A stretch of DNA of 64,000 nt from positions 256,001-320,000 of the forward strand of contig MTLY02000003.1 in assembly GCA_002011035.2 (NCBI GenBank). The letters run 5' to 3'. The first letter of the stretch is position 1. Every line of letters starts with the position of its first letter. Below are positions 4,403-47,529 of the stretch, piece by piece. Origin of the DNA: Candidatus Hecatella orcuttiae. Lineage in GTDB: Archaea; Thermoproteota; Bathyarchaeia; Hecatellales; Hecatellaceae. The notes beneath the pieces are model-generated. The model was given only the letters and a program-made list of their open reading frames with translations. It made no database searches and was not told where the DNA came from. Made by a program: the position numbers and the translations under genes.

Positions 4403-4506
4403 CGGTGAAAAAAGCTGGAAAGTGGTAGAATGCAACAGTATAATCTCGCTGCCATATTAAGAAATCGTTAGGAGCGGAGAGAAAAACGAAGATAAAGTCT
4501 CTCTAT

Positions 4507-5520: not shown

Positions 5521-6487
5521 AATTGGTGAAATTGGAGCAATTATTGGAACATGTTCTGCTCTAGCGGAAAAAGGCGTTGGGGAAATAATCAAGACTGCGT
5601 CGAAAATATACGAAACAATTAAAGGCTCCTACAAAGTCCTAAACCAAGAGATCGTGGTGCTCTGCCCTGAATCAGTCCAACACTTTTCTATCGCTTTCGA
5701 GGCCACAGGTGGATTCTTGAGTCAAAAGATTAAGTTTCCTTTTGGGAAACCACTTAGGGTGAGGCTTAGACCCTTGAGGTCATTGCAAGACCTATCCGAG
5801 GCAATCTTTCTTACTGAAGAAGGTTTTGAGATTAATACTCGGGGCATGCAAGCGGAGGACACTTTTCTATTAGATGTTGATTATAGGATTACAGACCCAA
5901 AATTCGTAGATGCTCTTGTCCAAAGAAATCACGCAAGAGAGTTACCGAAAGACAGAGAGAGCGAATACTGGATGCATGCTCAATTGAAACATCCTAAAGT
6001 CTTTCAGACAAAGTATGGTCGATTAGATCTCCGCGACGTAGATTTTAGCGTTAACGTTGGGATTAGTGAAGACATAAAAATGTCCATCCCTTCTGCGTTT
6101 AGAAGAGAACTAGAAGCTGGTGTGAAGCTTCTTATGGAACGGGACCCGCATAGGAAGTATATGCTCGGAAGAGAACATGTAAAGGCTATGAGAGCACGAG
6201 GCAAAGGAAAAAGTGTAATCGAACTTCTCGGAGATCTTCAAGATCTTTTCTTTCCAAGAACTTTCCGCAAGTTTGTTGAGGTGAAAAAAGACTTCCGTTA
6301 TTCTGAGTGCCACAGGGGGAGCGATTTCTATGAGACAGTACCTTTTCCAACATGGCCGAAGACTATGAAAGTCATATCTAGAACTGATCTTGGACTTGAA
6401 CGATACGCCGCAGAAGGAATTCTCGTGTATAAAAAGGCAGACTTTCTTGAACAGGTAAGCAAAATACTTGGCGTGAAGCTGAAGTAA
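5513..6487 (+). CDS. Hypothetical protein (324 aa, AT-rich cargo)
   Basis: Long ORF with GGAGG RBS, coupled to upstream gene; no motif recognised. Confidence 0.75.
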   Translation: MVEIGEIGAIIGTCSALAEKGVGEIIKTASKIYETIKGSYKVLNQEIVVLCPESVQHFSIAFEATGGFLSQKIKFPFGKPLRVRLRPLRSLQDLSEAIFLTEEGFEINTRGMQAEDTFLLDVDYRITDPKFVDALVQRNHARELPKDRESEYWMHAQLKHPKVFQTKYGRLDLRDVDFSVNVGISEDIKMSIPSAFRRELEAGVKLLMERDPHRKYMLGREHVKAMRARGKGKSVIELLGDLQDLFFPRTFRKFVEVKKDFRYSECHRGSDFYETVPFPTWPKTMKVISRTDLGLERYAAEGILVYKKADFLEQVSKILGVKLK

Positions 6488-6830
6488 TCAAAACACCAAT
6501 AGTAGTTATTATGTTTTAACGTTTTTATAATAGTTTTGACTAGCTGAGGGGACTTTAAAGTCGGAGCATAGATAAAGGGATAAAAGAATTAGAGATTACT
6601 TTGGTTCCGCTTTTCCTTCATATTTTTTGCGTAAGTTTCTCATATTCTTCGCTAACCCATCTGCTGTCTTCCTCGAAATCTTTGAGTATGCCTAGTTTTC
6701 GGTGCACTCCAGCCCCATGTCTGAGGTGGTTGGGGGTGCTCCTCGAACCTTGTAGGGGCCTCGGCGGAAAAGAGCCGGCGGCTTCTTAGAGCCACCATAT
6801 TTAAGGGCGCTGATTCTTTCGGGGATTACC

Positions 6831-7595
6831 GTGGAAAGCGCCTTAGGCTTGCTGTCGAAGATTTTTCTAGCGGTGCCCCTGTTGGCTGCGAAGCGCATGT
6901 ACCATGAGGCCCGGGACACCTGGAATCCGTATGTCGGCTGCCTGCACGACTGCCTCTACTGCAAGAAATCCTTCCAACGCCAAGTGGCCAGGGTCGGCCG
7001 CATCTTCGGCTGCGAGGGCTGCATCCGCTACCAGCCCCACTTCCACCCTGAGAGGCTGAGCCGCCGGCTGCCCAGGACAGGCCCCGGGCAGTTTATCTTC
7101 GCCTGCGACTGCGGAGACTGGACGTTCGCCCGCCCCGAGTGGAGGGCCGCCGTCCTCCGCCGCATAGCCGAGCTTCCCGACCGTACTTTTCTCATCCAGT
7201 CCAAGAATCCCGCCTGCTTCCAGAAGGACAGCTTCCCCCCCAACGTCATCCTGGGAACGACCATCGAAACCAACCGGGACGAGCTGGGCAGGGCGATCTC
7301 CAAGGCCCCGCCTCCCTCAGCCCGCTACGCCGCGATGGCCACCCTCCGGTGGCCGAGGAAGATGGTCACCGTGGAGCCCATCATGGACTTCGACCCCGAC
7401 ACCCTCCTGCGGTGGGTGAAGGACATCAGCCCCCTCTGCGTCTACGTGGGCTACGACAGCCGCCTCACCGGGCTGCCGGAGCCGCCCCGGGCAAAGACCG
7501 AAGCCTTCATGGCGGCCGTGGAGGAAGCGGGCATCCCGGTGAGGCGGAAGCTCATCAGAGAAGCCCAACCCAGCCGCCCCGGGTTGCGAGGCTAG
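6831..7595 (+). CDS. DUF5131 (phage Gp37/Gp68) radical-SAM-like protein
   Basis: TWNPYVGCLHDCLYC (CxxxCxxC), FLIQSKNP, NVILGTTIE, VTVEPI. Confidence 0.8.
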   Translation: MESALGLLSKIFLAVPLLAAKRMYHEARDTWNPYVGCLHDCLYCKKSFQRQVARVGRIFGCEGCIRYQPHFHPERLSRRLPRTGPGQFIFACDCGDWTFARPEWRAAVLRRIAELPDRTFLIQSKNPACFQKDSFPPNVILGTTIETNRDELGRAISKAPPPSARYAAMATLRWPRKMVTVEPIMDFDPDTLLRWVKDISPLCVYVGYDSRLTGLPEPPRAKTEAFMAAVEEAGIPVRRKLIREAQPSRPGLRG

Positions 7596-7897
7596 GGTCG
7601 CTTCTTTTTTCGGGGGAGCGGTTTGGCTAAGCTGTTCTTGGTCACGGAGGACAAGGAGCAGACATGGTTTCTGGTCGAAGCTGACTCTGTGGCCAGCTCT
7701 CTAAGGTGGCTGAAGGGAAGGCTTACCGATGCGTAAAGTCTTTACATCAGTGGCAATCTTAACAGTCTTTTTTTAACATGGGGGTCTTCTTTAGCATCGA
7801 TCACCATAAAAGCTAGGGAAATTGCAATTTCAGTGACTTCTTCTTCGGTTAGCTTTAAATTTTTCTCGTTTCCCAACAAGATAAATCCCCTAGGATT

Positions 7898-10456
7898 TTA
7901 ATTAGCTTGATTTAGGGTTATTGCAGGTGTGAAGGTTATATTACTGTTGCCGCCTTCGCTTTTCACTAGAATTCGATGGACTTTACTTGCGTCGATTCCT
8001 TCCAGTTGCGTATGAGTTATTAAAAAGATCTGTCTAAATGACTGATCCTGGATGAGGCTATTCATTACGCTTGGACGGCGCATGTAATCCAAGCTGGCGA
8101 GTGGTTCATCCATAATGAGGCAGTTGATTATCGGTGCTCTCAGTTTTTCTGTTTTGAATGGTCTAACTCTAGCCATCAGTCGGGAGATGGCCATTCGGAG
8201 GGCCAGGCCTAGTGCGACCTTATCGCCGCCACTCAGGTTTCCTCGAAACTTCTGAAAACCATCCATTAGGTCATTTAAAGTTAGGTCTACACCTATAGTT
8301 TCACGTCCACCCCTGACTACATGGGATGTTGAGTATATCTCTTGAACCTGATATCTGCCCGTCGTGAAAGCGAAAAGATAATTGTTGGTAGCATCTTTTA
8401 AAGCGCTGAAGAGGCGTGTCTGAATAATGTACTCTGATATGAAGCCGCCGACGGTTGTCCGAAGGTATCTAACATGTTTAAGTCTTTCTTCTTTCTTTTT
8501 CTTCTCCTTCTCTTTTTGGTTCAGCTGACTGATGGTCTCTTTTAAATATTTTAGCTCTTCCATCTGCTTTTTGACTTCCGCTTTAAGCTCTTTAACTCTC
8601 TCCGCATTATTCTGATAGTCTCTTTCTAATGCAATCCTTAAGTCTCTGAGGCTTTCAAGACTGTCTACTGCAAAGTCCTTTAATATCACCTCAACACTTG
8701 CGTATTTCAAGTCAGCCAGAATATTGTCAAGTTTTGATGTAGCTTCTTTCTTCGCTCTAATTAATTTGTTCCTTTTTCCCAGGTCTCCTTTGATTTCAGT
8801 GGCCGCCTTCTCTATCGCTTTTTGCTCTTTACCTATCTTCTTAGGAATCTCTTTCAAATCTCCCTCAAGTCGTTTTATTTCACTTTCGAGTAGAGCTCTC
8901 ACTGAAATTAGTTCATCAATATTCTGGATCTGATAAGTCTCCAAAAATTTCTCTAAGGATGGAAATCCGATGGATCCAAGTTTGTGTGTGAAGGAATTAT
9001 TTTCTTTTATTAACCTATTACATATCCCTTCGAGTCTCCTAAAGATTGAGAACAGATCGCGTAATGCTTTGCATTCTTTGTTTAGGTCTTTAAGTTTCTT
9101 ATCTGACCGTACTTTCTTTTCCGACATCTCGGCAACCGTTTGTTCAATACCTTTGAGCCGCTTTTCCAGCCTAGAGAGGATGTATTTCCTTTCATCATCT
9201 GAGACCACCGGTCTAAGACATGAGGGGCACTCGCCTTCTTTTTCAAGCCTCTCTGCACTTAATTCTTTAAATTTGACCTCTGCCTTGAGGAGAGCCATGT
9301 TATCTTTAAGCTTCTCTAGTTCTTTCTCAACTTCTTCCAGTTGGGCTTCTCTTTCCTGAAGCTGTTTCTCTACCGTTGGAGTCTCGTCTTTAACCCTGTG
9401 TGGGTGTTCCTCAGGCTTAAAATTTAGTGCTAAGTTCTCGTCTTTTACAAGTTCCTTTATCTGGCTCTGAAGCTCAACAATCTTTTCATGATGCCTATTG
9501 ATCTCCTTTATTTTATCTAGGGTCGGTATGTTCCCTAATTTTTCCGTGGCTCTTCGTAAATCCGCTTCTGCTTTTTCTTTATTTTCTTGTAGAGTTCTTA
9601 GCTCTTTTTCATGCTCGGCTTTTTCATCGGTGGATCGTCTGATCTTCTCCTCTAAATGTCCTAGTTCCTTCTCAGCTTGAGCGACATTATCCAATAGCTC
9701 TTTGATACTAGATATGGTGTCTTTTTCTGGAATTCTTTTAAGCTCAACCTCAATCTCGCGTTGGCTCTTTTCCAGCCGCTTCTTGTGTTCCTCAAGTTCA
9801 GATATCTTCTCTTCAAGTCGTTCCTTATCCCTTTCTTTATCGGGTAGCTTTGCCGTTTCTCGTTCGATCTCATGGATCTCCCTCTCTAAAGCTTTTTCAT
9901 CCTGCAGAAGTATATCGGAGTGTATCTGATCCAATTCGTCGAGGTTGAACAATGTGCTGATAATACTTCGGAGCAGTGTAGGTGGTGCGGTAGCTAGGGA
10001 ATCAACTTCCCCCTGTCGGATGAAGACAGTGTGCAATGCGTTCTCTCTCGATATGCCCATTAATTCTTCAAGCTTAGATTCTACACGTCCGCTACCCTCT
10101 TCCATTACTACGAATTTATCGCCAGAACGTCTGCTCAAAACCGCATCAGCACCTGTCTTTCCCCGCATGTATCTTCTGATAACCTGATATTCCTCACCAC
10201 CCACTTCAAATTCTAATGTTACCTTACATTCAGAGTGTTTCTTTTTCACAAGCTGGTCTTGTTTCTCAACCGGAACCGCAAGTGTTCCCCATAGAGCCCA
10301 TAAAATTGCCTCTATTAGACTGGTCTTGCCGCTCGAGTTTAAGCCTTCAACAACGAAGAGACCTTCAGGAAGACTCTGAGCGAAATCCCCAGAAGGTAGC
10401 TCAATCTTATCGAAAGGCTTAAACCGTTCGGCGATAAGCCTTAAAACCTTCATCAC
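7898..10456 (-). CDS. rad50: Rad50/SbcC-family SMC-like ATPase
   Basis: Walker A GLNSSGKTS, Q-loop FIRQGE, coiled coils around a CPSC zinc hook, signature LSGGD, Walker B IMDEP, H-loop ITH. Confidence 0.92.
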   Translation of the reverse strand: MMKVLRLIAERFKPFDKIELPSGDFAQSLPEGLFVVEGLNSSGKTSLIEAILWALWGTLAVPVEKQDQLVKKKHSECKVTLEFEVGGEEYQVIRRYMRGKTGADAVLSRRSGDKFVVMEEGSGRVESKLEELMGISRENALHTVFIRQGEVDSLATAPPTLLRSIISTLFNLDELDQIHSDILLQDEKALEREIHEIERETAKLPDKERDKERLEEKISELEEHKKRLEKSQREIEVELKRIPEKDTISSIKELLDNVAQAEKELGHLEEKIRRSTDEKAEHEKELRTLQENKEKAEADLRRATEKLGNIPTLDKIKEINRHHEKIVELQSQIKELVKDENLALNFKPEEHPHRVKDETPTVEKQLQEREAQLEEVEKELEKLKDNMALLKAEVKFKELSAERLEKEGECPSCLRPVVSDDERKYILSRLEKRLKGIEQTVAEMSEKKVRSDKKLKDLNKECKALRDLFSIFRRLEGICNRLIKENNSFTHKLGSIGFPSLEKFLETYQIQNIDELISVRALLESEIKRLEGDLKEIPKKIGKEQKAIEKAATEIKGDLGKRNKLIRAKKEATSKLDNILADLKYASVEVILKDFAVDSLESLRDLRIALERDYQNNAERVKELKAEVKKQMEELKYLKETISQLNQKEKEKKKKEERLKHVRYLRTTVGGFISEYIIQTRLFSALKDATNNYLFAFTTGRYQVQEIYSTSHVVRGGRETIGVDLTLNDLMDGFQKFRGNLSGGDKVALGLALRMAISRLMARVRPFKTEKLRAPIINCLIMDEPLASLDYMRRPSVMNSLIQDQSFRQIFLITHTQLEGIDASKVHRILVKSEGGNSNITFTPAITLNQAN

Positions 10457-11708
10457 TTTTCCTCCATTTTTTCATTGCCTCGACGAAGAGTTCAGTCAGC
10501 AGATTTAGGTTGTACTCCTTGGGAATGAGGTTCTTTTTCCTCTTTTCTTCTATGTAGTTTTTGAAGTCCTTCGCGGGATCTTCTATCAGATACTCTATGT
10601 CCACATAACTGATGCTGGGTGGTAAGGTTGAAGCCTTTATGGGTGGTCGGCCAATTTTTAGTTGAATTATATTCAGGTTCCTGTCTGAAAGCCCTTTATT
10701 ATATGCATAGTCGATTGCCTCAGAAATTTGGGTCACATTTCTACCAGATATTTCCCCTTCTAATGCTATCCTTACCCGCGCGGCCGTTTCGTAATCGTAC
10801 GGTTTTCTAAAGCCCAGATTATCCAGTAGGTTAAAGATTCTCTTTACGATATCATGGGAAGAATCGTCAAGCTGAACTTGAACCGTTTCATTTACCATAG
10901 GTCTTGGCAGAGTTAAATGGACTTGTCTAATATCCGGTGCTTTATCCTTGTCTGCTTGAACGATGAGAAAACCTTTCTTATGGTCTTTCTCGTCGAATTT
11001 CCATCTCTCCGTCGAGCCAGAAAACCATGCCTTTTCTGTGACGCGACGCATACAGTGTTCATGTCCAAGGGCAATATAGTCGAATTCCATATTTAGAATA
11101 GTTTGGTCAAGAGTTCCATCAATTGGAGAGCCGTGGGCTATCGCTATATTAATTTTGTCTTTGTCTAGTTTTATGCTCTTGAGCCACTGCTGGTACTCTT
11201 CATACAAACCTATGGTTTCAAGAGTTGATGGTTCAATGTATGGAAACGCATAAACTCTAACTTCATCTTTTATATCAGCATATAATGGTTGCTTTTCACG
11301 GAATGTCTCTCTGAAACTCCAGTAAGTAAAAGCTCGTGTGTTATCGAAGGCGATAGCATACTCGTCCAATGTAGAATGCTTATATTCGACGTAACGACCA
11401 TGATTTCCGTCGATGATTACAATGGGTATGTTTGCTGATTGGAGGTCTCTAAATGCTTTTGCAACAATTTTTCTAGCCATCTCTGGCGGAGGATAGGGAT
11501 TGTATGACCATGGAGAATCGAATAAGTCTCCAGAGTGAATAACGAGGTCAATCTCATCTTTCCGGTCAACAATCTCTTTTACAGTCATTTCCAATGCCTT
11601 GTAGAAGTCGTCCTCAACAGGACGAACTTCTTGCCCTATTGTTCCAGGTCTCACATCATCGGGTCTATGGCCCAGATGGGTATCGGAAACATGAGCTATG
11701 ACTACCAA
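10419..11708 (-). CDS. mre11: Mre11/SbcD metallophosphoesterase nuclease
   Basis: HVSDTHLG, GDLFD, GNHG, AHG, ALGHEH, SGSTE motifs; overlaps rad50. Confidence 0.92.
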   Translation of the reverse strand: MVVIAHVSDTHLGHRPDDVRPGTIGQEVRPVEDDFYKALEMTVKEIVDRKDEIDLVIHSGDLFDSPWSYNPYPPPEMARKIVAKAFRDLQSANIPIVIIDGNHGRYVEYKHSTLDEYAIAFDNTRAFTYWSFRETFREKQPLYADIKDEVRVYAFPYIEPSTLETIGLYEEYQQWLKSIKLDKDKINIAIAHGSPIDGTLDQTILNMEFDYIALGHEHCMRRVTEKAWFSGSTERWKFDEKDHKKGFLIVQADKDKAPDIRQVHLTLPRPMVNETVQVQLDDSSHDIVKRIFNLLDNLGFRKPYDYETAARVRIALEGEISGRNVTQISEAIDYAYNKGLSDRNLNIIQLKIGRPPIKASTLPPSISYVDIEYLIEDPAKDFKNYIEEKRKKNLIPKEYNLNLLTELFVEAMKKWRKSDEGFKAYRRTV

Positions 11709-11729
11709 AATTTATACCTCCCTAATTAG

Positions 11730-13499
11730 TTATAACACGGTTTTTGACCTTACCGGAGTTCCAGCCTTTGTCTGATACAGGGTCCTAGTCTTTTCATAGA
11801 GCGAGTCGAAAAGGGGTGTATAGATGACTAGTGGAGTATCTCGGTAACTTGCTGTTAGAATGATTTCACCTTTACCCAGAACTTTAAATTCGTTTTCAAA
11901 GCCGGTAATATCTTTGCTTGCATTAGAGATTGCTGCCCTTATCTCGTCTGCACTTGTTAAAGACATATTGAACTGTGTATTAATGCAGGATAAGATAATG
12001 TTATCCAGGGCTGTAACCTGCTGACTAATAACCGCCAAACCTAGCCGAAACTTTCGGCCCTGTCGGGCTATATCCTTGTATATGTTTTCAAACCTCATTA
12101 TACGAGGTGTCAGAACCGATGGGGCTTCTTCTACCGTTATCAGAATGGGAGGCAACTCGTCTATTCTCCTCATTTCTTGTTCATCTTTGGAGTAATATTT
12201 CTTGGCTATGGACTGCCCTTTATTTCCGACAAAGTGTTCCCTAAACGTTCGTGGAATTCTTCTCTTCAGAATTTGGGCTTTAAATTCGCTCCAATTTGTT
12301 GACGATTTGACAGCCTTTCTTAATTCAAAAATGGTCCTTGCGATTACTGTTGTGGAGAGGAATTGTTCTAAATCCGAAAGGAGGCTGGTGTTGAATATAA
12401 GAATTCTGCCCTGCTCCAAGGCTTCAATTATCTTTATTAAAGTTGATTGTTCTGGGTTATCTACAAAGATGGCTGAACGTCTCACGAATTCCAGCCGCCT
12501 TTCTACGGCATTTATTGTTACATCAGGATATCGACCGCTAAAGTCTTCACCTATTTGGGTAATCCAATTTTCGTGGAAGTGTGCATACAGAGCGTTCATG
12601 TAACTGACCATTTGGTCGCTGACTTCCATGATTGAGGTGATGTCCAGCGGTAATATTTCTTGGTAGGCAATTCTTACATCTAATGACAACCTTCGAACGG
12701 CCTCAGCTGCCGTTTCACGGTGGGGTGTAAGGTAATAAAAGTCTTTGAAGAGTTCTCTTTTCGCTTCATCAGGCATTGAGTCTACAATAGACTGTATCCC
12801 ATATTTTCTGATTCCCAAAGCAAACTCATCGTGGGGGTCTATGGCCAGCATTGAAGCTCTCTTACTATCACCACTCTGCCAAGACTTGAAGTTAAAGTCT
12901 ACCACCGATTTTAGGAAAACTAGGAGGAAATTTGACTTTCCAGCGCCCGTAGTTCCAAAGATCCCTATATGTGTTGAGATGTGTTCTAACGGCAGATTTA
13001 CTCTGACATTTAACACCTCTTCGCCTGCTAACAGGCTTCCTACAAAGATCTCTCCTTTCAGTTGACTGGATAGGATCTGTTCGATGGGTCTGTCACTTTT
13101 GTTAGGAATAGGCCGATAAATTATGGCAAAGTGTTCTGGAAGACGCCTAGGCATTTTAAAGTCCCATGAATGAGAACCTTCACCGCCAGCTTCAGCATAT
13201 CCGAGTAGTTTCCCTGTAAGGTAAAGAAGTTTCTCTTTCTCAGCGCTGGCTAGATAGGCATCTCCCTCTACCACAAGAGTATCTGCGACCTTGCTTAACT
13301 CCCTTATCCGTCTTAGAATATTTATACAATCCATAGCGCGAAACAGAAAGATTCTCTTTCGACCTCCTCGTGTTGAGGGGATGAGGAACAATTCGCCTAC
13401 GGCAACATCTTCATTTTTGGCTGATAAAGCCAATTCTGTGACTGAGCTCTCTGCTAATCTACCAAATCCTTCTGCCCATTTATCTATATCAAAACTCAT
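11730..13499 (-). CDS. herA: HerA-family DNA translocase ATPase
   Basis: HIGIFGTTGAGKS, IDPHDEF, ITVEEAP, IARQGRKF..ISQQ. Confidence 0.9.
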   Translation of the reverse strand: MSFDIDKWAEGFGRLAESSVTELALSAKNEDVAVGELFLIPSTRGGRKRIFLFRAMDCINILRRIRELSKVADTLVVEGDAYLASAEKEKLLYLTGKLLGYAEAGGEGSHSWDFKMPRRLPEHFAIIYRPIPNKSDRPIEQILSSQLKGEIFVGSLLAGEEVLNVRVNLPLEHISTHIGIFGTTGAGKSNFLLVFLKSVVDFNFKSWQSGDSKRASMLAIDPHDEFALGIRKYGIQSIVDSMPDEAKRELFKDFYYLTPHRETAAEAVRRLSLDVRIAYQEILPLDITSIMEVSDQMVSYMNALYAHFHENWITQIGEDFSGRYPDVTINAVERRLEFVRRSAIFVDNPEQSTLIKIIEALEQGRILIFNTSLLSDLEQFLSTTVIARTIFELRKAVKSSTNWSEFKAQILKRRIPRTFREHFVGNKGQSIAKKYYSKDEQEMRRIDELPPILITVEEAPSVLTPRIMRFENIYKDIARQGRKFRLGLAVISQQVTALDNIILSCINTQFNMSLTSADEIRAAISNASKDITGFENEFKVLGKGEIILTASYRDTPLVIYTPLFDSLYEKTRTLYQTKAGTPVRSKTVL

Positions 13500-13501
13500 T
13501 T

Positions 13502-14770
13502 TTATTCAAGTCCTATTCTTCGTCTAGGATTTAAGAGGGATTCCTCAGAAAAACCCTCTTCTTTACCTATTTCGATAACTCTCTCATAGAATAGATCTCT
13601 GTCCTCTCTAGTTAGGCTGCAGGATAGATGTGCAAAAGCTGGAGGACAAGGATAACCATACCATCTTGCGTCATGGGACATGAAGTCTATCTCTCGGAAA
13701 ATATTGATTTCATTCATTCGCATCTTTTCCGCGTTATTATCATAAATCTTTGACTCCCACCACCTACGGTCAAAGTCCACCCTAAACGCGGGCATTGAGC
13801 TGGTGAAGCTGAAAAGATACGTTACACCTAATTCGGGGGGTATGCGTCGCTTCCGACATATTTTCAACTTTCCACCAGGGTCATCATTTCCGGGAATCCT
13901 ACAAAACCAGTGAGCGTCGGGTCCATACTTCCTTCTCGCAAGTTGGATTATTTTCTCACCACCTGGGATCGTATGAGACTTACTGAGAGCCATAACAATT
14001 ACGCCTTCTTTTCGAGCCCTGAAGCACAAATCCCTCAACATATAATCATGGAGAAGGTGAGGGTAATCATATCTGGCCGGGAAGAGAAGAGTAAGAGTTG
14101 TGTCCAGTATCACGTATTTTAGGTTAAGGTTCGAGTCTAACGCCCTCTTTGCCATCGAAATTTCCGCAGACCACCTAAGCATGTCAAGTATTCTCTCAGG
14201 AAGATGAACTGGTGGACTGATAACGAAGTCGCTTATGTCTGATTTTCCATATTTCCTTAAAATTTTGTCAACCGAATCTAACTTACCCTTTGTATAGTCG
14301 ATGAAGTATGGGACCAACAAGTTATTCAAGTCATTGATCAGATAGACACGTTTCACATAATCAACAAAGTTTTGCCATAGAACATCCTCATCAAAAGACG
14401 ACCAGAAGGCCACGGTTAACCTTCCACCATCAGGAATATACCCTTGGTTCCTTAACTCTTTCAGCTCCATTATTCGACCATCATTTGTTCCCGTATTGTG
14501 AACCGTTAACCCCACAGTTATTAGATACAGGAAGACATCCTCATATTGAACTACTGGAGCCATACCACTTCCATCAACAGCCCCTATCAGAAAATCATTT
14601 TCAAATTTGTACCCTGATGGAAAGGGCTTAAAACTAACTAAAAGCTCTTCAATCCTCTGAAGATCGCTGTCAAATAGATTTGCCTGAGCTATGTCACGAT
14701 TCTTAATTTGGCGATAAGCAGACCGAACTTCATTTTCAAAGTCGGACGCGAAAGCCCGATCTGAAATCAT
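13502..14770 (-). CDS. nurA: NurA-family nuclease
   Basis: GAVDGS, ILDTTL, LSKSH and C-terminal GYPCPPAFAH; directly upstream of herA. Confidence 0.85.
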   Translation of the reverse strand: MISDRAFASDFENEVRSAYRQIKNRDIAQANLFDSDLQRIEELLVSFKPFPSGYKFENDFLIGAVDGSGMAPVVQYEDVFLYLITVGLTVHNTGTNDGRIMELKELRNQGYIPDGGRLTVAFWSSFDEDVLWQNFVDYVKRVYLINDLNNLLVPYFIDYTKGKLDSVDKILRKYGKSDISDFVISPPVHLPERILDMLRWSAEISMAKRALDSNLNLKYVILDTTLTLLFPARYDYPHLLHDYMLRDLCFRARKEGVIVMALSKSHTIPGGEKIIQLARRKYGPDAHWFCRIPGNDDPGGKLKICRKRRIPPELGVTYLFSFTSSMPAFRVDFDRRWWESKIYDNNAEKMRMNEINIFREIDFMSHDARWYGYPCPPAFAHLSCSLTREDRDLFYERVIEIGKEEGFSEESLLNPRRRIGLE

Positions 14771-14840
14771 TAAAGGAACCCTTCTTCTAAGGCTTGACCC
14801 ATAGATATATTAAGTTTTGATGATATTTATAATTAAAGGT

Positions 14841-14865
14841 ACCATAGATTGGTGCTATCTATGGT
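14841..14865. promoter_or_regulatory. Inverted-repeat operator in the divergent nurA/HTH promoter region
   Basis: ACCATAGAT-N7-ATCTATGGT overlapping the HTH start codon; extra half-site CCATAGAT at 14799-14806; TATA-like tracts at ~14805-14835. Confidence 0.6.
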
Positions 14866-15064
14866 TAGCAAATACGAAAAAATAATCTATGAGATGCTTA
14901 GCTCAGAGCCAATAACCCCTAATGAAATTGCCCAAAAACTAAAAATAACGTATAAGACTGCTCAGAGAGCACTATTACATCTAGCGCTTACAAAGGAAGA
15001 TATTGGATACAGAAACTCGGGGCGCATACACATTTTCTGGAAGAAAGACTTAGCAGAAGACTAA
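14861..15064 (+). CDS. Small winged-HTH transcriptional regulator
   Basis: PITPNEIAQKLKITYKTAQRALLHL HTH followed by a wing. Confidence 0.8.
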   Translation: MVSKYEKIIYEMLSSEPITPNEIAQKLKITYKTAQRALLHLALTKEDIGYRNSGRIHIFWKKDLAED

Positions 15065-15088
15065 ATTGAAGGTGAGGTTGAGCCCATC

Positions 15089-18000
15089 TTGGAAATTTTA
15101 GATAGACTTAAGAACAACATTTTTGAAGATGCATTATCATTTGACCTTCGTACCCAGGCAGAGTATTTATCTCTTACTCGAGATGTTGATTATCCTTTCT
15201 CGGCGTTAACCTCAAAGGCAAAACTATTGCCTCATCAAGTTGGAGTTGCCCATAAGGTCTTGAGCAGTATCAGGTCCGGCAGCCTATTGGCGGATGAAGT
15301 AGGGCTTGGAAAAACGATCGAGGCCGGCATGATTCTTAAGGAGTACTTATGTCGAAAGCAGATTAAGAAGATTCTAATACTAACTCCGGCGTCACTCACA
15401 ACTCAGTGGCGTGACGAATTGAAATCGAAATTTGACGAAGGTTTCGTCATATATGATCAAGAAACGAGGAAAAATCTAGAGAGACGGCATGAAAACATTT
15501 GGAAAGCATATGACAAGGTTATTTGCTCAATAGATACAGCTAAACAACAACGTTACCGGAAGGATATAGTAACCGTCAACTGGGATATTATAATAGTTGA
15601 TGAGGCTCATAAATTAAAGAACAGGAAAACCGAGAACTATAAGCTCTTAGAGGACTTACCTAAAAACCGCGTCTTTTTTCTGACCGCAACTCCGCTTCAA
15701 AATAAGCTAGAAGAGTTATATAATCTAATTAGCCTAATAGATGAGAAACTACTTGGAACGTATGACTCTTTCTCGATGAGATTTGTTGACGATACAAAAG
15801 GCTTGGTTCCTAATAATTTTGATGATTTGAAGCAACGTCTCCAAAAAGTAATGATTAGAAACAGGAGAAAAGATGTTTTTGGTGTAAGGTTCACGCAACG
15901 TTTTGGTGAAACAATTCCGTTTGAGTTGACTCCGGAAGAAAGAAGGCTGTACGACGAAGTGACAAAGTATGTCAAACAAGAATACTTGAAGGCTATGGAG
16001 CAGAACAAAGCTGGAAGAGGGTTTCTGCTCATTATCATGCAAAGAATGGTCTGTAGTAGTAGCTTCGCCATAAGAGATTCGTTAGGGCGTCGAATTCAAC
16101 GTCTGGTAAAGATCTCTAAAGAGTATGACATAGTGCCTAAGCAACCTTCTCTGACGAGCATCAGCCACCCATATTTTGAGGCTTTAGGCGTAAATCATAC
16201 TGCCACTAAAGATGAGATAAAAGCTGCTTATCGAACTTTGGCAAAGGAATACCATCCAGATATTTCGCCGCTACCTAAAGATGTTGCAGAGGAAAAGTTT
16301 AAGGAAATATCAGAGGCCTATGAGACGCTGACCGACGACAACAAAAGGAAGCGACTTATTGAGGAGCATGAGGATGCCGATATAAGTGATATCGCAAAAA
16401 ATTTCACTCTGCTTCAGATGGAGCTAGAAAAACTTAATCAACTTTATGAATTAGCAAGCAAAATCACCAAGAACAGCAAAGGCGAAAAACTTATTGAGGC
16501 CCTCGAAGCGTTGAAGCGAGAAGAGCCAAACGAGAAAGTTCTTATATATACCGAATTCAGGTCAACACAAAGGTACCTTTATGAGCTTTTGACCTCAAAA
16601 GGCTATGAAGTCGCAATATTCAACGGCTCAATGAGTGTAGAAGAAAAGGATGAAGCAGTTAAGCAATGGCGTGAGAACAAACAGATAATGGTCTCAACTG
16701 AATGTGGAGGAGAAGGAAGGAACTTTCAGTTCTGCCACATAATGTTTAACTACGACCTTCCTTGGAATCCTATGAGAGTGGAACAGAGGATAGGTAGAAT
16801 TCATCGGATAGGACAGGAGAAGAATGTGAAAATATTCAACTTCTCAACTAAAGAAACCATCGAAGAGTATGTGTTAGAATTACTCGAGACAAAGATTCAA
16901 CTGTTCAAGGAAGTTATCGGTGAGCTTGATCTAATACTAGGCGATATAGTCGAGGATGCCAATCTTGAGAGGGTGATAATGGAAATCTTAGTTAAGGCTA
17001 AGACTTCCCAAGAGTTGAAGGAGAACTTCGAAGAGCTTGGCAGAAAGATACAGATAGCAAGAGAAGAGTTTAAGAAGGGTCTTAAAGACCTCGATGAAAG
17101 GGTTTATGCCGGGTTTGACCTCTCAGTTTATCGCCGAGTGATGGGAACTGAGCTTGAAAATCTAGTAATGAAAGAGAGAATAGTCATAAAACGTTTTTTC
17201 CTAAACTATTTAAAGAGTAAAAATTTAGACTTTAGATATCTAGAGCCGGAAGAAGCAGTTATATTCCAGATACCAGAGGAGTTTAAAAATATTATAAGTG
17301 ATTTTGCGCAGAAGCAACGTCAATTTTACCTTAGAGAGCGAGATAGATTTTATGAATTGCTGGAAAAACCGCTTGAAATAGCTAAAGATATTCATGGGTT
17401 TATAGAGGATTGCGTGTGTAAGCTATGTAGTGGTCATACGATAAAATCCTGTTTCAATTGTTCAATTCATACGTATTTAGAGAATGTTGCCTTCCATGCG
17501 AATGCAGGATTTACTTCTATTCTGAAAAATGACCTTGACTATGTAACTTCTAATCGCTTTCGAGAGGATGTAGAAGGAAGAATTCTCAGAGGCAAGATCA
17601 AGGCTAGAGCTACATTTTCACCTGAAGTTGCACAGCAAGAAAACATTGAGTTGATCACTATTGGAAACAGGTTAGTCGAAAATGCGATTGAGGAATGCAA
17701 AAAGAAAGGACTGACCACCAAAAAACTGATAGACCTAAGCAAACATACGCTTAGAGGGTTTGAAAAATACAGTGGATTAAGAGGAATATTATTTAATTTT
17801 AAGGTTTCTTTCGAATCCTTCGATAAGAAAGAAGAGTTAATTCCAATTGTGATCGATTTAGACCATATGAAATATGAAGAAGAACTCTCAGGTGAGGTTA
17901 ATTGGCTTTATAGCACCGAGCTTTTAGACCAAATTGCCATTAAATCAGATGAAGTCGACGAGGCCTATCAATTGGCGGTAAACGAGTTAAACACTAAGGT

Positions 18001-18364
18001 AAAAACTGAACTCGAAAAGATAAGAGGGAAGAATAAGATGTATTTCGAGGATGAGCTAAACAAGATTGAAACATACTACGACGATATTAGACACACCATG
18101 ATTTTGAAGGAACGTGAATTGGAGGATAAATACGTAGACCTGATAGGCAGAATAAGGAACAGCCGTGAATTTGAAGCCAGAGAAAAATACAGAGAAGAAC
18201 AGAGGAAAATTGAGATTCAACTAACGAAGTTGAGAAACGAAAATAACAGATTCTGGGAGGAGATGGTTAATAAAAGAGCTAAAGAGCTGAAAAAGCTTGA
18301 AGAACAAAATACAATAAAAACTAAGATAGAATTAATTAATTCAGCCCTCATTAAAATCAGTTGA
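15089..18364 (+). CDS. SNF2-family helicase (RapA/YqhH/DrmD-like) with an inserted DnaJ J-domain
   Basis: [54 protein letters not shown]; J-domain [36 protein letters not shown] at ~16172-16351. Confidence 0.92.
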
Positions 18365-18377
18365 GGGTCCCCGACTG

Positions 18378-21300
18378 ATGCGGAAGGAACAGGCTGAAGA
18401 AAAAATCCGCGAGTTGGTTGAGAGATATGACTCAATAATTAGAGAAGGAAAGAAAAGTTCTTTCAGCGAGCAGGATGTTAATAGGGTTTTCATAATTCCA
18501 TTTATCAGAGCCTTAGGCTGGGATACTGACAATATTGATGAAGTGAAGGAGCAACGAAGAACGTTAACAGGTCCAGCTGATTACTCGCTTAATGTGGAGA
18601 AGAGACCCAAGATAGTTCTGGAGTTAAAGAAATTCGTGGAAGATCTTGATACCCGACGGGTCATAAAGGGAGGCAGGGAGGAAAGCTACCCTGAACAGGC
18701 TATGCGGTATGCTTGCTATTTAAAAACAGATTGGGTTGTCCTAACCAATTTCGAGGAAATACGACTTTACTACGCTTGGGAGATAAAGCCCGAAGACGGC
18801 TTGATCTTTAAACTGAAATATCATGAGTATTTAGATAATTTTAATAGATGGCTGTGGCTGCTTTCCAAAGAAAGTGTTACTTTAGGTGTTCTTGACCAAT
18901 ACCAAAAGAGAAGGATACGGAAAGATATAGATGTAGAAGTTCTTGAAGACCTGCTTGACTGCAGGAGATATCTTATAGACAACATCAGCAAAAATAACCC
19001 AGCTTTAACGAGAGAGAACCTTAAGGACAGCGTTCAGCGAATCCTCAATAGGCTTGTCGTTATTCGTGTTGCTGAGGATAGGAACATTATAGGTGCAGAC
19101 AGCTTATGGAAGGAGCTTGATGCGTGGAAAACTAGAGGGCTTCCTACATCTTTCATGCGAAGCTTAAAAGGCCTCTTCCGAGACTTCGACGACATCTACA
19201 ACAGCAAACTGTTTGAAAAACACGAATGCGAAGACTTGAAGATAGACAATGAAACACTAGAAAAAGTCATTGAAATACTTTATAAATACAATTTTGACTT
19301 GATTTCTGCTGATGTGTTAGGGGCGATCTATGAAGACTATATTGGGCACATACTTCAAGAGGCAGAAAAAGGCATAGACATCGTGGAAAGCCGTGAAACA
19401 AGAAAAAAGGCCGGGATCTTTTATACTCCGACACATGTTGTTGAATACATTAGGAGAGCTATTAAAAGGCAAAAATCCTGAGGAAGTTTCTAAGATAAAA
19501 GTTTTAGACCCGGCATGCGGCTCGGGATCATTCTTAATTAAAGCTTTTGACGCTCTGAAAGAATATTACGATTGGTATAATAAAACTATTGAGAAAAAAG
19601 CCTTAGGCTCAATCGCTGAATATGGCAACCTGATTCAAGATGTAGAAAAGAGAATTGTTATTGAAAATCTTTTTGGTGTTGATCTAGACCCCCAGGCTGC
19701 AGAGATAGCAGCAGTAAACCTTATGTTAAAGGCACTAAAAAAGGGTGAAAGGTTGCCATTGATTCTTGGAGACAACATAAAATGCGGCAATTCTCTAATA
19801 TCGGGATCAGAAAAGCTAAGAGAATACTTCGGAGATGATTGGAGTTTAGAGAGGCCTTTTAATTGGGAGAAAGAATATGTTGAAGTGTTTAAAGAGGGGG
19901 GTTTTGATGTAGTTGTTGGCAATCCACCTCATGGAGCCAAACTTTCACAACAAGAGAGGGATTTCTTCTTTGACGTTTATCAAGTAGCAAAAGGTTACAA
20001 GAATTCAGCTTCTCTGTTCATTGAACGCGCCACTCAGTTGCTAAAACCTCTAGGGACAATGGGACTTGTTATCCCTAAATCGTTAACGTTCTCGGAAAAA
20101 TGGAAGGCGACGAGAGAATTTATTCTCCAAAACCTCAGATTGATCGAGATCGTTGATATCAGTAAAGCCTTTCCGGGTGTTCTTCTTGAACAAATAATAA
20201 TCATTTGCCGAAAGGATCCAATGCAAAGCTCTAGTTATAAGGGAACAAGCTTAACATGGGAAAGAATCCTTGAAACTTATACAATACCTCTCTCCCTATG
20301 CAAAGAACTAGATATTTTTCCTATACATGTCGACCAGCACTCTCTCACTATATATAAAAAGGTTATGAAGAAATCTTTCCAACTCAAGGAAATATCCAAA
20401 ACTTTCAGAGGACTACCGGTACAAAGTAAAGCTACAATCATTCAGGGAGAGAACTCAGAACCTCTGTTGAGAGGTGATGATATCAAGCGATACTATCACG
20501 CAACTCCACAAACATTCATCGACCGAGATGCCTTAAAAGAGGATAGCAAGAAAATAACTGATATGAGAAAGCCGAAGATTATTTCCCAAAGAATCATTGC
20601 CCATGTCTTAAAGCCTAAGGATAGAATTATAATAATGTCAACTATAGATGAAGAAGGTTTACTCAATGTTGATACTGTTGAAAATACGATTTTGACGGAT
20701 CCTCAATATGACCTCAAATATATCCTCGCATTCTTAAACTCAAAACTTGTTTCTTGGTTCACGTACACGTTCATATTTAACAAGGCGGTTAGAACGATGG
20801 ACTTCGATGATTACTATGTAGGAAAGATACCAATCTATCCGGCCACACCTGATCAGCAGAAACTAATAACAGAAGTAGTCCAAAAAATGTTAACACTCAC
20901 CTCACGCATTAAGGAAATAGATACAGACTTCCAGAAGCGCGTTAACAGTATACCACGGGAGAAAGATACCACTTTCAAAGATTACTATCTAAAATATAGT
21001 AGTGACAGAACGCCTCTAATACCATCTAATGTGAAAGGACAAATTAAGTCTCTTAAAGTTGAAGAACAGGGGCACCAGTTAGTCATAAAAGTTGACTACA
21101 TAGAGAAGGACGGGAACAGGGAAAAGCAACACAGTGATGTAGAAGTTTTTAGATGCGAAATCGAGAATGAGCCGATTAGAAAATTCCTTTTCTATTCTGT
21201 CTCAAATTATGGAAAAACTCTTGGGAGTGGAAACATCTGGTACAAGATTCAGAACATTCCCCTGGCTAAATTCCACAAAAATGAGGGGCAAAATGAAAAA

Positions 21301-21492
21301 GTTGTGGTTAAACTTATTAATGATTACTTGAGAGCAATTAATAACCGAAGACTGTTGCAACAAGAAATTCAAGCCACGGATAAAATACTAGATGAAAAAA
21401 TCTATAAACTCTACGATCTAAATCAGGATGAAATATCCTTAATAGAGAGTTCTATACAGCGATATTTTGTTGAGGAATCCTTTTACATCTAA
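18378..21492 (+). pseudogene. Type IIG restriction-modification enzyme (HsdR_N-like nuclease + N6-adenine MTase + TRD), frameshifted at ~19445
   Basis: ORF1: LGWD, PADY..ELKK, QAMRYA, LTNF, LGAIYE, GIFYTP. ORF2: VLDPACGSGSFL, GVDLD, GNSL, FDVVVGNPPH, TaqI_C-like YILAFLNS. The two frames meet at AATACATT. Confidence 0.85.
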
Positions 21493-21603
21493 AGAATTAC
21501 CCTACCAAACTAAGGCTTTCATCACTTTCCATGGGAAGATGCATGTTTAAAGACTTATCATGGTGGCTGCCATGGATGTTGATTACTTCATTGAGTATTA
21601 TTA

Positions 21604-22490
21604 GGTTAATGCATAATTCGTTTTTCTTCCTTTTATTCTTTGGCGTCTGATGAGTCGTCTCCTAACCCTTAGGCGTCTCTCCGCAAAGGTCGATTTGGCT
21701 TCTCTGGCTGGGGTTGAGGTTTCCTACTCCGGGCTTGGGCCTAGGCATTACCCTGTGAGGGCTAGTTCCTTGCTTTGGTTTTGATGCACCTTCTGGCTGT
21801 GCCTTCGGAGACCATGCTGGCCGGGTATCTCTCGGCTCACAGGGATGTGGCTGAGGCCTGCGGCTTCAACCGAAACCCTAAGAGCCATAGGGGGGCTCCC
21901 AGCCAGTCGGCTCTGAACAGGTTCAAGCACAGGGTCGGAGTTGAAGGCTTCCAAAGTGTCTTCGAGGAGCTGGCCCAAGGCCTCATGAAGGCTGGTGTGG
22001 CCAAGGGCCGATGGGTTGCCGTGGACTCCTCGGCTGTGAAGGCCTACTTCCGCGGCGACCCAGATGCGCGGTGGGGCTATACAGATGTGGATAAGCCCTT
22101 CTTCGGCTATAAGCTCCATATCCTCATCGACGTTAAGACCGAGCTGCCCGTAGCCTTCAGAATCACCCCGGGCAACGTCCACGACAGTCAAGAGTACCTA
22201 AACCTCTTGGAGGATGCGGAGGAGGCCGACCCTGAGCATGCTTACGGGGATGCTGCCTACGACTCCGAAGCCCTCAGGGAGACATCCAGAAGCCTCTACA
22301 ACCTAGAGCTCCACACACCCAGAAACCCGAGACGTAAGGGTGGAAGGCCCGAAACAGCAAGACCCTGAAGCGCATGCTGTCAGCAGTGGAACGGAGCTTC
22401 TCCCGGCTGAAGCTCTTCCGCCTCAAAGACCTCAAGGTGAAGGGCTTCACATCCACAGCCATCCACATCCTCCTCGCCCTAGTAACCATG
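21604..22490 (+). mobile_element. Degenerate IS (IS4/IS5/IS982-like DDE transposase) with two frameshifts and no right end
   Basis: VAVDSS, FFGYKLH, PGNVHDS, YGDAAYDS and, in another frame, AVERSFSRLK; ATG at 21650; frameshifts at ~21763 and ~22350. Confidence 0.8.
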
Positions 22491-22633
22491 CCCCAGACCT
22501 GGCTAAGCTGAAGGGGAGGGAAAACTATTACAGGCTCAGAGTCGGCGACGTCAGGGTCGTGTTCAAGATAGACAAGCCTGCAAAGACCATATACGTCGAA
22601 AAGATAGGCTACAGAGAAGCAGTCTACAGATAA
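22491..22633 (+). pseudogene. C-terminal fragment of a RelE/ParE toxin
   Basis: DLAKLKG..YYRLRVGDVRVVF..IYVEKIGYREAVY with no N-terminus, abutting the truncated transposase. Confidence 0.75.
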
Positions 22634-22995
22634 CGTTGCAGCATCGTCGAAGCCGGAAGGCTACCTTTTCTTCGGCCTCAGCCTGACCTCGTCGCCCGCA
22701 CGCTCAAACTCCAATTCTTTGTCGACTAGGTCGCTTACGTCGAAATCTGCGGGGAACTCATTATCCATTACCTGCATAAAATCTCCTCCTAATCTTTAAA
22801 ATCATTCCATCGCCCAGCTCATTCCACGGTTCCGTTACAACCTCAAAATCAAGCTCAGTTTCAAAAGCACTCATTTTTCCTCCTCGCCTTGACGTATTAA
22901 AGCCCCTTTTATCTAGAACGTTTTTAGCTAAAAAACTCTACGACTACGTCTCACAAGGTGACTGGTAAATAGTTTTTCAGAGTAGATGGCATTTT

Positions 22996-23017
22996 ACAGG
23001 CGGCTGGATTTGAACCC
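22996..23017 (-). other. tRNA 3'-end-like fragment (possible att site)
   Basis: Minus strand GGGTTCAAATCCAGCCGCCTGT (T-loop + T-stem + acceptor-like), 80 bp downstream of the integrase stop. Confidence 0.4.
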
Positions 23018-23096
23018 TCAATTTACCCTCTCAGCCCCAGTACCACTTCGCTGGGCGTCGGGGTTGCAAAGCGGCGTGCTGGCACTCCAAACCCCG

Positions 23097-24029
23097 TCAC
23101 CTAACAGGGCGTTCAGGTCCGTAAGGGGATAGGTAGGGCTCTGCTTTCAGGTAGGCCCGTTCCAGCTCCGGCCGCGGCGGAATGAAGTAGGCGACCCTCA
23201 GCCGGCCTAGGCTGTGGCCCATCATGTATTCGACCACGGCCTCGTTGACTCCCGCCAGCTTGGCCATGGTGTTGAACCACTTCCGGAGTGAGTGGCAGGT
23301 TATCTGACCGTCGACTCCGGCTTCGGCGGCCAGCCCTGTGACCAGCCGGCGGGCTGTGCGGTCGCTGATGGGGAAGACCCTCTCTTCTGCGCTCGGTTTC
23401 CCGTCCTCTTGGAAGTAGGCTTGGAGGGCGCTGCAGGCGTCCCGGCCTAGGAAGGTTTCAAACCACCCTTGGGTTTTCTGCCTCCGCAGCCGCAGGTAGA
23501 CAGGCCGTTTTCCAGCCTCCAGCTCGGTTTTGACGGCGCCGTAGGTGAGGGCCAGCAGGTCCGCCTCGGAGAGGCCGCTCTGAGCCTGGCAGAGCACGTA
23601 GGCCCGCCCGCGGGGGTCCGCCAGGTCGCACATGGCCCTGAGCTCCTCCCGGCTGGGCACCCGGCTGGCGGTCTCCGTCCAGCTCTGCGGAGCCTTCACC
23701 TTGAGGGGGAGGTAGTTGGCCGTGAAGAAGCTGCGCACCGCGGCGTGGGCGAACGCGGCGGAGCTCCGGCGGAGGCCCTCCCTGCGCTGGAGGTGGTTGA
23801 ACCAGGCTGTGAGCCGCTCCTCCATCCTCCGCCGGACGGCCTCATCCTTCGCCTCCAGCTCCCGGCGCCGCCGCTCCACCAGCTCATCGGGGGACATTTT
23901 GACGAACCCGCAGAACCTTCGCAGCCAGAGCCCGTAGGCCCGCCGGGTGTTGGGGCTGCCGGAGTGTTCCCCGGCCAGCCTCTCGAACCACCGCTCCACC
24001 GCTTCGCCGCCCGGCTCCTGAGGGCCCAC
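23097..24029 (-). CDS. Tyrosine recombinase/integrase
   Basis: SPNTRRAY, QSGLSEADL, RQKT, HSLRKWF, MMGHS, VAY. Confidence 0.9.
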   Translation of the reverse strand: MGPQEPGGEAVERWFERLAGEHSGSPNTRRAYGLWLRRFCGFVKMSPDELVERRRRELEAKDEAVRRRMEERLTAWFNHLQRREGLRRSSAAFAHAAVRSFFTANYLPLKVKAPQSWTETASRVPSREELRAMCDLADPRGRAYVLCQAQSGLSEADLLALTYGAVKTELEAGKRPVYLRLRRQKTQGWFETFLGRDACSALQAYFQEDGKPSAEERVFPISDRTARRLVTGLAAEAGVDGQITCHSLRKWFNTMAKLAGVNEAVVEYMMGHSLGRLRVAYFIPPRPELERAYLKAEPYLSPYGPERPVR

Positions 24030-43969: not shown

Positions 43970-44060
43970 AAAGTACTTTACCTTAAAGTAATATTTAAAG
44001 GTATTTTCAGTAATGCTTATATAGCCAACCACCAACTAACTAACATGAAGGTACCCGGCT

Positions 44061-47528: not shown

Positions 47529-47529
47529 C

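Follow-up and report, generated by a model that had tools for sequence, protein, structure and literature searches.

A probable mosaic island of Candidatus Hecatella orcuttiae with an Asgard-type end-resection operon beside an SNF2/type IIG operon

In archaea such as Sulfolobus and Pyrococcus/Thermococcus, HerA, NurA, Mre11 and Rad50 constitute a machinery for the resection of DNA ends at double-strand breaks, and the four protein families are encoded in one operon; Asgard archaea possess homologues. Further described systems contain related parts. RapA (HepA) of Escherichia coli is an SNF2-type ATPase associated with RNA polymerase; type IIG restriction enzymes of the MmeI/Eco57I kind unite an N-terminal PD-(D/E)xK nuclease, a helical spacer, a gamma-class N6-adenine methylase and a TaqI_C-type domain; DISARM class 1, BREX and Hma include the proteins DrmD, BrxHI and HmaA, respectively. 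In DISARM class 1, the SNF2 protein DrmD and the methylase DrmMI accompany a core of drmA, drmB and drmC; the BREX core comprises PglZ, BrxC and PglX; Lamassu pairs the SMC-like LmuB with the effector LmuA, and Wadjet consists of JetABCD. The methylation-associated defence system MADS (genes mad1-mad8, with MAD2 as methylase) consists, according to the accessible part of its description (PMC13662399), of a methylase plus two ATPase-nuclease modules, and the modification-based TdpAB contains a HerA/NurA-like pair. Here, we describe a locus that resembles each of these in part. It is an AT-rich block within a stretch of 64,000 nucleotides (nt) from Candidatus Hecatella orcuttiae (contig MTLY02000003.1), which is called the window in the following and to which all positions refer. 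In this block, a nurA-herA-mre11-rad50 operon (the cassette) stands back to back with an operon of a small winged helix-turn-helix (wHTH) regulator candidate, an SNF2 ATPase carrying a J domain, and a type IIG restriction-modification (RM) enzyme. We regard it as moderately probable that the block is a horizontally acquired mosaic island, in which an Asgard-type end-resection operon has been joined to a wHTH-SNF2(J)-IIG operon of defence type.

The block extends from about 7600 to 21700 (~14 kb), has a GC content of 35-45% and sharp borders. Its genes possess GC values of 0.37-0.42 and third-codon-position values (GC3) of 0.36-0.43, as compared to a GC3 of 0.70-0.87 for the flanking genes; for 2-kb windows of the genome, the mean GC is 0.519, the 5th percentile 0.429 and the 99th percentile 0.629. 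Contigs of independent sequencing runs bridge both borders. Two contig joints, 7556 -> 14419/14420 (run X5, side 21) and 8760 -> 9580 (X4, side 21), were set aside as weak; joint sides under 30 often stem from other organisms or repeats. A short high-depth contig of 1281 nt that touches 8485-8517 in several runs may likewise stem from repeats or other organisms. Direct repeats indicative of an attachment site were not detected on either side of the block, and the window contains no tRNA genes.

The 1.75-Mb host genome, which encodes archaeal TFIIB, eRF1 and GatE, possesses a nurA-herA..mre11-rad50 locus of its own at C3:115979-123133, beside gatE. Two further herA-nurA pairs are located on C1 (C1:230323-232909, C1:158549-161240); including the island, there are four HerA/NurA pairs in all. 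Eleven of 14 genomes from the order, among them all eight high-quality ones, contain the host's own Rad50, mostly at 46-62% identity. Among the same 14 genomes, this one alone yielded a full-length island NurA (656 bits versus at most 34 bits), and in the phylum it was detected in one of 401 sampled genomes at E ≤ 1e-10. Alignments of the island proteins with their host paralogs are short or partial and reach about 21-31% identity (Rad50 23-24%). Because the host has its own locus, no full-length island NurA was found in the other genomes of the order and the identity to the paralogs is low, the island set is, as judged from these comparisons, not the sole resection operon of the genome, and it did not arise by a recent duplication.

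Scanning metagenome contigs for island-type NurA gave 14 loci. HerA follows NurA in all 11 loci that reach far enough, and Mre11-Rad50 follow in seven of seven. The identity to the island proteins is 41-48% for NurA, 49-60% for HerA, 33-42% for Mre11, and about 29-35% for Rad50. In the loci L025-L028 (35-36% GC), the neighbours are a class I tRNA synthetase, ThiF, two UQ_con proteins (one with a UEV/Vps23 core), VPS28, EAP30, and PolB. There, the cassette sits between a cluster for ubiquitin and the endosomal sorting complexes required for transport (ESCRT-I/II) and a family B DNA polymerase, which in L025 carries an intein with a LAGLIDADG domain. Such a ubiquitin/ESCRT cluster is an established hallmark of Asgard archaea. 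The neighbours in L034 and L035 are KaiC, transporters, Usp, and S-adenosylmethionine synthetase. To judge from these genes, the relatives of the cassette lie in ordinary chromosomal surroundings.

Further data point to the same group of archaea. Neighbours of HerA and NurA in the ESM Atlas are commonest in Promethearchaeota, the nearest HerA cluster consists to 83% of Archaea, and one NurA relative is named Helarchaeota by its source. Uncharacterised NurA homologues are widespread in Asgard archaea, according to the accessible part of a review (PMC13748450). A maximum-likelihood tree was calculated for 35 NurA sequences, from which fragments shorter than 380 amino acids (aa) and P0013 were left out. 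The window NurA pairs in it with its closest relative P0002 (50% identical; support 99/97), inside the clade that contains the Asgard-context loci; deeper forks reach support values of only 88/80-83, and some rows are long-branched.

The proteins of the cassette share with the archaeal resection machinery the Rad50 ABC motifs and zinc hook, the Mre11 motifs, the HerA Walker A motif, and the NurA fold. In Rad50, Walker A (GLNSSGKT), Q-loop (RQG), LSGG, Walker B (LIMDE) and H-loop (ITH) are all present, and the CPSC hook is found at residue 410. Pfam assigned SMC_N (51.6 bits), and the PDB matches cover Rad50 head and hook, including the zinc-hook fragments 1l8d and 6zff. Mre11 contains the motifs DTH, GDLF, GNH and GHEH and matches Pfam Metallophos (57 bits); its PDB matches are the Mre11 structures 3auz/4tug (E about 1e-9), and it aligns to Mre11 of M. 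jannaschii. HerA matches Pfam DUF87 with 62 bits and has the Walker A motif GTTGAGKS. In contrast to the known operon, the island set is an additional one, which resides on foreign AT-rich DNA while the host has resection genes of its own; its order is nurA-herA-mre11-rad50, its NurA escapes the Pfam NurA model, and the NCBIfam equivalog cut-offs are missed by the whole cassette: Rad50 scores 104-136 bits with Rad50 models whose cut-offs are 700-1087 (136 versus 700 for the equivalog), Mre11 53 versus 500, HerA 65 versus 970, and NurA gave no match.

No Pfam, NCBIfam or PADLOC model matched the 422-aa NurA candidate, even at E-values up to 5. An AlphaFold (AF2) model computed from an alignment with 14 relatives reached a predicted local distance difference test (pLDDT) value of 85.4 and a predicted template modelling (pTM) score of 0.86. 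The best PDB match determined by Foldseek was S. solfataricus NurA (2ygk; E 1.5e-8, probability 1.00), followed by TdpAB and by the HerA-NurA complex of T. kodakarensis. Because the model resembles these structures best, the protein is, on the strength of its predicted fold, a NurA-fold nuclease of a divergent subfamily. Asp 66, Glu 203, Asp 223 and His 381 (D66, E203, D223, H381) are invariant in the alignment of 14 sequences and form the putative catalytic site. The subfamily is small: a full HMMER search among 1.84 billion cluster representatives identified 71 at E ≤ 1e-3, and a word-indexed search yielded 15 proteins.

The SNF2 protein of the second operon contains the Pfam domains SNF2-rel_dom, Helicase_C and DnaJ. 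The latter occupies residues 362-422 (about 360-425) with 74 bits and has its HPD motif at position 389; the SNF2 motifs and this HPD are intact. The full-length model is of moderate quality (pLDDT 68, pTM 0.45), with pLDDT below 50 in the J-domain region. Its four top Foldseek matches are all E. coli RapA, with about 1160-1180 alignment columns; this nearly whole-length match includes the C-terminal part, whereas eukaryotic remodellers align over the motor only. In agreement with this likeness, relatives of the island SNF2 carry Pfam RapA_C. The protein differs from RapA by the J domain between the lobes, a Cys-rich segment and a long C-terminal coiled coil, its score of 245 bits is below the RapA cut-off of 576, and its gene adjoins an RM gene rather than housekeeping genes.

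Among the 120 relatives listed, Pfam DnaJ was detected in the window SNF2 only. Its closest relative, P0017, has the third J-domain helix and lacks the first part and the HPD motif. Because no other listed protein has the domain and P0017 retains just this remnant of helix III, the insert is, within the sequences sampled, limited to a clade of very few members. The host genome encodes a DnaJ of its own, which implies an Hsp70 system in this organism, and the J domain of the SNF2 protein may recruit Hsp70. In a bacterial locus, an Hsp70-like open reading frame (ORF) overlaps the start of an SNF2 relative of 35% identity (L020:6137-8089). Taken together, the J insert, the remnant in P0017 and this overlap give a hint of a recurring connection between SNF2 and Hsp70.

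The type IIG gene is split. The first piece (367 aa) is a nuclease with the motif D68...ELK84 and matches Pfam HSDR_N/MmeI_N. The second (699 aa) consists of the gamma-class N6-adenine methyltransferase and the TaqI_C specificity domain (Pfam Eco57I/N6_Mtase/TaqI_C). A single PADLOC type IIG profile, PDLC03604 (REase_MTase_IIG), is spanned from 6 to 370 by the first frame and from 364 to 658 by the second. The cause is a one-base frameshift near 19450: the frame switches just after ...FYTPTHVVEYI and resumes as ...GELLKGKNPEEVSKIKVLDPACGSGSF. The motifs FYTP and LDPACGSGSF lie on either side of this break, which parts the nuclease from the methylase. The site is identical, without difference or gap, in contigs of four public runs (X1, X3, X4, X5), of which three possibly underlie this assembly and would then not be independent; contigs moreover drop rare variants. 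All domains of a type IIG enzyme are present, in two polypeptides rather than one, whereas two relatives on archaeal plasmids are single ORFs of about 1180-1200 aa. The methylase has motif I as DPACGSG. Methylase motif IV usually reads NPPY/F/W; unlike this form, it is NPPH in the island enzyme (residue 177 of the second piece).

In order to compare the island with known defence systems, 11 proteins of the island region were scanned with PADLOC. The best matches of SNF2 were BrxHI (375 bits), DrmD (360 bits) and HmaA (276 bits), and the gene adjoins one of adenine methylase type, as in DISARM class 1, BREX and Hma. With NCBIfam, SNF2 scored 368 bits for DrmD_b (cut-off 950) and 321 for a second DrmD model (cut-off 610). 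In contrast to DISARM and BREX, none of DrmA, DrmB, DrmC, PglZ, BrxC, DUF1156 and DUF499 was seen among the scanned proteins; for DrmA there was just a lower-ranked generic helicase match of SNF2 itself, and PglX scored 116 bits against a cut-off of 500. For Lamassu and Wadjet, Rad50 gave generic LmuB (101 bits) and JetC matches, and LmuA and JetA/B/D did not appear among the 11 proteins. With respect to MADS, the PADLOC matches to mad2, mad3 and mad8 are weak, those to mad3 and mad8 being partial as well; MAD2 reaches 67.5 bits against a cut-off of 720, and no kinase or other mad genes were seen in the island. The likeness to MADS is a parallel of design only, and the MAD3-MAD4 pair is OLD-like, not Mre11-Rad50, in the accessible part of the same description (PMC13662399). 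The likeness to TdpAB is equally one of design, namely that of a HerA/NurA-like pair. Keyword searches of the open-access literature found no description of such a linked system or of an SNF2-J fusion, which does not prove their absence from print.

In the sequences examined, a linkage of the two operons was not observed elsewhere. HTH, SNF2 and both IIG pieces had no tblastn match (E ≤ 1e-5) in the 14 NurA-anchored metagenome loci, whose upstream reach is at least 1.7 kb in 10 cases and more than 6 kb in seven. An SNF2 scan of genome contigs identified four loci of 32-47% identity, with neither a cassette nor an IIG gene near the SNF2 relatives; one of them (L021) lies among helicases of UvrD/RecD type and a Fic gene. 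These four genomes yielded no island-type NurA, and neither did 401 genomes of the bacterial phylum to which G413 belongs; both blanks show little, as the sets are without a positive control. The SNF2 relatives on haloarchaeal plasmids are shorter and 39-43% identical; one lies beside a DUF1156 methylase and DUF499, another beside other genes. The two plasmid-borne IIG relatives have no SNF2 neighbour, and the two-operon arrangement was found at neither the two haloarchaeal SNF2 loci nor the two archaeal IIG loci. Scans of viral contigs with the NurA alignment and with the SNF2 protein gave no match.

These results bear on a first-pass annotation of this DNA, which had proposed that the two operons form one defence or repair system, in which the RM enzyme makes the first cut in unmethylated DNA. 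With linkage in 0 of 14 NurA loci, 0 of 4 SNF2 genomes and 0 of 2 plus 0 of 2 plasmid loci, a conserved seven-gene system of resection, SNF2 and IIG genes is not supported by the sequences compared, and the role assigned to the RM enzyme is weakened by the frameshift between its nuclease and methylase parts. The annotation itself had named a lack of linkage in other genomes as grounds for refuting the proposal, and this is the outcome throughout the sample examined. Its statement that drmABC and BREX genes are not visible agrees with the PADLOC scan, which gave no core matches.

The intergenic region gives hints of a local coupling. The gap between nurA and the HTH ORF measures 78 nt; with ATG 14861 as the HTH start, it would be 90 nt. 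TATA-like AT-rich boxes lie about 25-35 nt ahead of each start. At 14841-14865, a palindrome ACCATAGAT-N7-ATCTATGGT spans this ATG; it is a perfect 9-nt inverted repeat (I5). A third copy of CCATAGAT is located at 14799-14806, near the putative nurA promoter, and precedes the nurA start by about 30 nt. These three copies are the only ones in the window, and they lie inside 14799-14864. The number as such is unremarkable, as at least three copies occurred in 14 of 100 shuffles; their clustering within 66 nt is striking. Boxes and repeat are candidate promoters and a candidate operator. The wHTH protein itself has only Pfam matches below the cut-off (PF0610-like_N with 1.8e-6, HTH_11, TrmB, MarR_2). 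Because the operator-like palindrome lies in the shared region, a local co-regulation of both operons is possible.

The coordinates of the features are listed in Table 1.

Table 1. Genes and regulatory region of the AT-rich block and the element at its right border
Feature	Position in window	Strand	Remarks
Rad50-like ABC ATPase, coiled coil and CPSC zinc hook	7898-10456	-	852 aa
Mre11 phosphoesterase	10419-11708	-	429 aa
HerA hexameric translocase	11730-13499	-	589 aa
NurA-fold nuclease (predicted), small divergent subfamily	13502-14770	-	422 aa
Divergent intergenic region, nurA/HTH	14771-14860		TATA-like AT boxes and operator-like repeat
Small winged-helix regulator candidate	14849-15064	+	71 aa; 67 aa if ATG 14861
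RapA-like SNF2 ATPase with J domain between the two motor lobes	15089-18364	+	1091 aa
Type IIG restriction-methyltransferase, frameshifted	18378-21492	+	frames 18378-19481 and 19393-21492
IS1182/IS5-type DDE transposase fragment, GC-rich, right border of AT-rich block	21775-22368	+	

The genes themselves had been observed correctly and carefully in the first-pass annotation: each one is present according to the ORF map, Pfam, PADLOC and NCBIfam. The description of a complete, motif-intact nurA-herA-mre11-rad50 operon holds, as the four genes are open and all checked catalytic motifs are intact. For the wHTH/SNF2/type IIG operon, presence and tight packing of the genes were confirmed, while the IIG gene turned out to be split. 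The shared divergent promoter of about 90 bp corresponds in length to the gap measured from ATG 14861; its AT-rich boxes make it a putative promoter. AT-richness, seen in the GC3 difference to the flanks, and the foreign, accessory character of the block, seen in its composition and its absence from the host's relatives, were borne out. The separate set of nurA, herA, mre11 and rad50, for which a search had been proposed, exists at the C3 locus given above; the island operon is not the only, vertically inherited one.

The two operons might form one functional unit: the wHTH protein would co-regulate both, the SNF2-aided IIG enzyme would mark self DNA and cut unmethylated DNA, and the cassette would destroy the cut DNA or repair self-inflicted breaks, in a manner similar to MADS. 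We consider this rather unlikely, and several observations nevertheless weigh against the mosaic reading or speak for such a unit. The operons are divergent and only 78-90 nt apart. The repeat resembles an operator of the small regulator and could touch both promoters; the cluster of all CCATAGAT copies between the operons, with the palindrome overlapping the HTH start, is the best remaining argument for the single-system model. Both halves belong to one compositionally uniform block, with a tetranucleotide distance of 0.197 between them, whereas their median distances to the remaining genome are 0.42 and 0.52; as a specific link this likeness was rejected, since further low-GC islands of this genome come about equally close (0.17-0.22). 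The linkage survey covered neither the contigs of the closest relatives, namely NurA P0002, SNF2 P0017/P0018 (63% and 53% identical over residues 300-1091) and P0019, nor the donor lineage, and the related loci, with their low NurA identity, say little on recent history. MADS has two ATPase-nuclease modules, as stated in the accessible part of its description (PMC13662399), to which the weak mad2, mad3 and mad8 matches may be added, and TdpAB, the second-best structural match of NurA, employs a NurA/HerA-like pair. On the other side, no related locus or genome examined shows the linkage, the cassette relatives sit among chromosomal genes, the contigs of four runs carry the frameshift between nuclease and methylase parts, and MADS membership fails at the mad2 score, with NurA matching no PADLOC model. 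A genuine local cooperation of the two operons is unlikely in our estimate. Quite unlikely is the more specific proposal that an Asgard-type resection machine was captured into a defence operon pair, sharing a wHTH-controlled divergent promoter with a chaperone-recruiting SNF2(J) motor and IIG. The palindrome would be the operator, with the third copy of the repeat as a further half-site at the nurA promoter, and self/non-self discrimination by methylation would be coupled to two dedicated ATPase-nuclease modules, in an archaeal MADS analogue made from repair proteins.

Alternatively, the cassette alone might act as an anti-invader nuclease machine against linear or broken foreign DNA, and SNF2-IIG would only happen to adjoin it in a defence island. 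The host has the cassette in addition to its own set, on foreign DNA whose region includes integrase-like, IS, ParE-like and DUF5131 genes; bacterial NurA-HerA complexes mainly degrade viral dsDNA, as the accessible part of the review cited above states (PMC13748450), and the Foldseek match of NurA to TdpAB fits such a role. We hold this to be very doubtful, as the nearest relatives are chromosomal, do not lie in defence surroundings and encode Mre11-Rad50 as a full pair, as is typical of repair; moreover, Mre11 and NurA are matched by no PADLOC model, and nothing in the sequence separates defence from repair. Just as improbable is a neutral passenger, i.e. a donor chromosomal fragment with a housekeeping operon beside an RM island, which moved as one piece and is now decaying. 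The IIG frameshift would be its first visible lesion, the chromosomal location of the cassette relatives would be explained, and the host already owns resection genes. Yet the four resection genes are open with every checked catalytic motif intact, as are the SNF2 motifs and the J-domain HPD, and runs of four studies gave contigs with this very sequence, which speaks against rapid decay and stays compatible with neutrality.

We thus prefer the mosaic island, for which the following mode of action can be proposed. The first module, a complete and apparently intact NurA-HerA-Mre11-Rad50 operon, has its nearest relatives in a chromosomal operon of low-GC Asgard-type archaea. Mre11-Rad50 would bind and trim DNA ends, and HerA-NurA would translocate on duplex DNA and degrade it from the end; if the proteins act as they do in archaea, the module would give the host a second end-processing machine. 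The second module, the packed operon of wHTH, RapA-like SNF2 with J domain, and the now frameshifted type IIG enzyme, may be a defence-type unit, in which methylase and nuclease would mark self DNA, the helicase would assist, and the small regulator would determine the timing. The modules would adjoin since foreign DNA gathers in such regions, and not as parts of a conserved seven-gene system.

The flanks of the block are unusually GC-rich and encode an integrase-like recombinase, the insertion sequence (IS) fragment, a ParE-like ORF, a DUF5131 protein, and a 640-aa PCNA fusion; by its gene content and composition, the whole neighbourhood is a mosaic. The IS fragment at 21775-22368 has a GC content of 0.59 and matches Pfam DDE_Tnp_1 and NCBIfam IS1182 (92 bits, cut-off 270). 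The right flank (21775-24029) also contains a tyrosine recombinase, which scores 61 bits with the XerA model (cut-off 220), and the ORF at 22340-22633 resembles a ParE toxin with 22.9 bits, just under the Pfam cut-off of 23. To the left, the GC-rich DUF5131 gene (6831-7595) parts the main block from a second AT-rich one (4000-6700, 36-44% GC). Two overlapping ORFs of the latter, 4507-5520 (337 aa) and 5513-6487 (324 aa), have no Pfam, NCBIfam or PADLOC match and no relatives in the related loci. The 640-aa protein at 514-2436 is a divergent PCNA sliding clamp up to about residue 270, which stays under all NCBIfam cut-offs, with about 370 aa of unassigned sequence attached; this segment has 66% GC, a value above the 99th percentile of the genome. 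Farther to the right, an integrase gene (42363-43685) is followed by a stretch of lower GC content (44-50%) that extends to 55065 and contains the large ORFs 46647-49939, 50316-53507 (1063 aa) and 54124-55065, all without a Pfam match. The stretch 42363-55065 is possibly another integrated element.

Should the mosaic reading be true, a complete four-gene operon for break resection can be transferred in one piece between archaeal phyla that are far apart, and can persist intact beside the host's own set. There would exist a small, very divergent NurA subfamily that is missed by Pfam, and a RapA-like SNF2 motor would be able to carry a J domain, which hints at the recruitment of Hsp70 by a defence-associated helicase. 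If the two operons cooperate, the locus would show how repair proteins can be enlisted to carry out the degradation step in a defence that is based on methylation.

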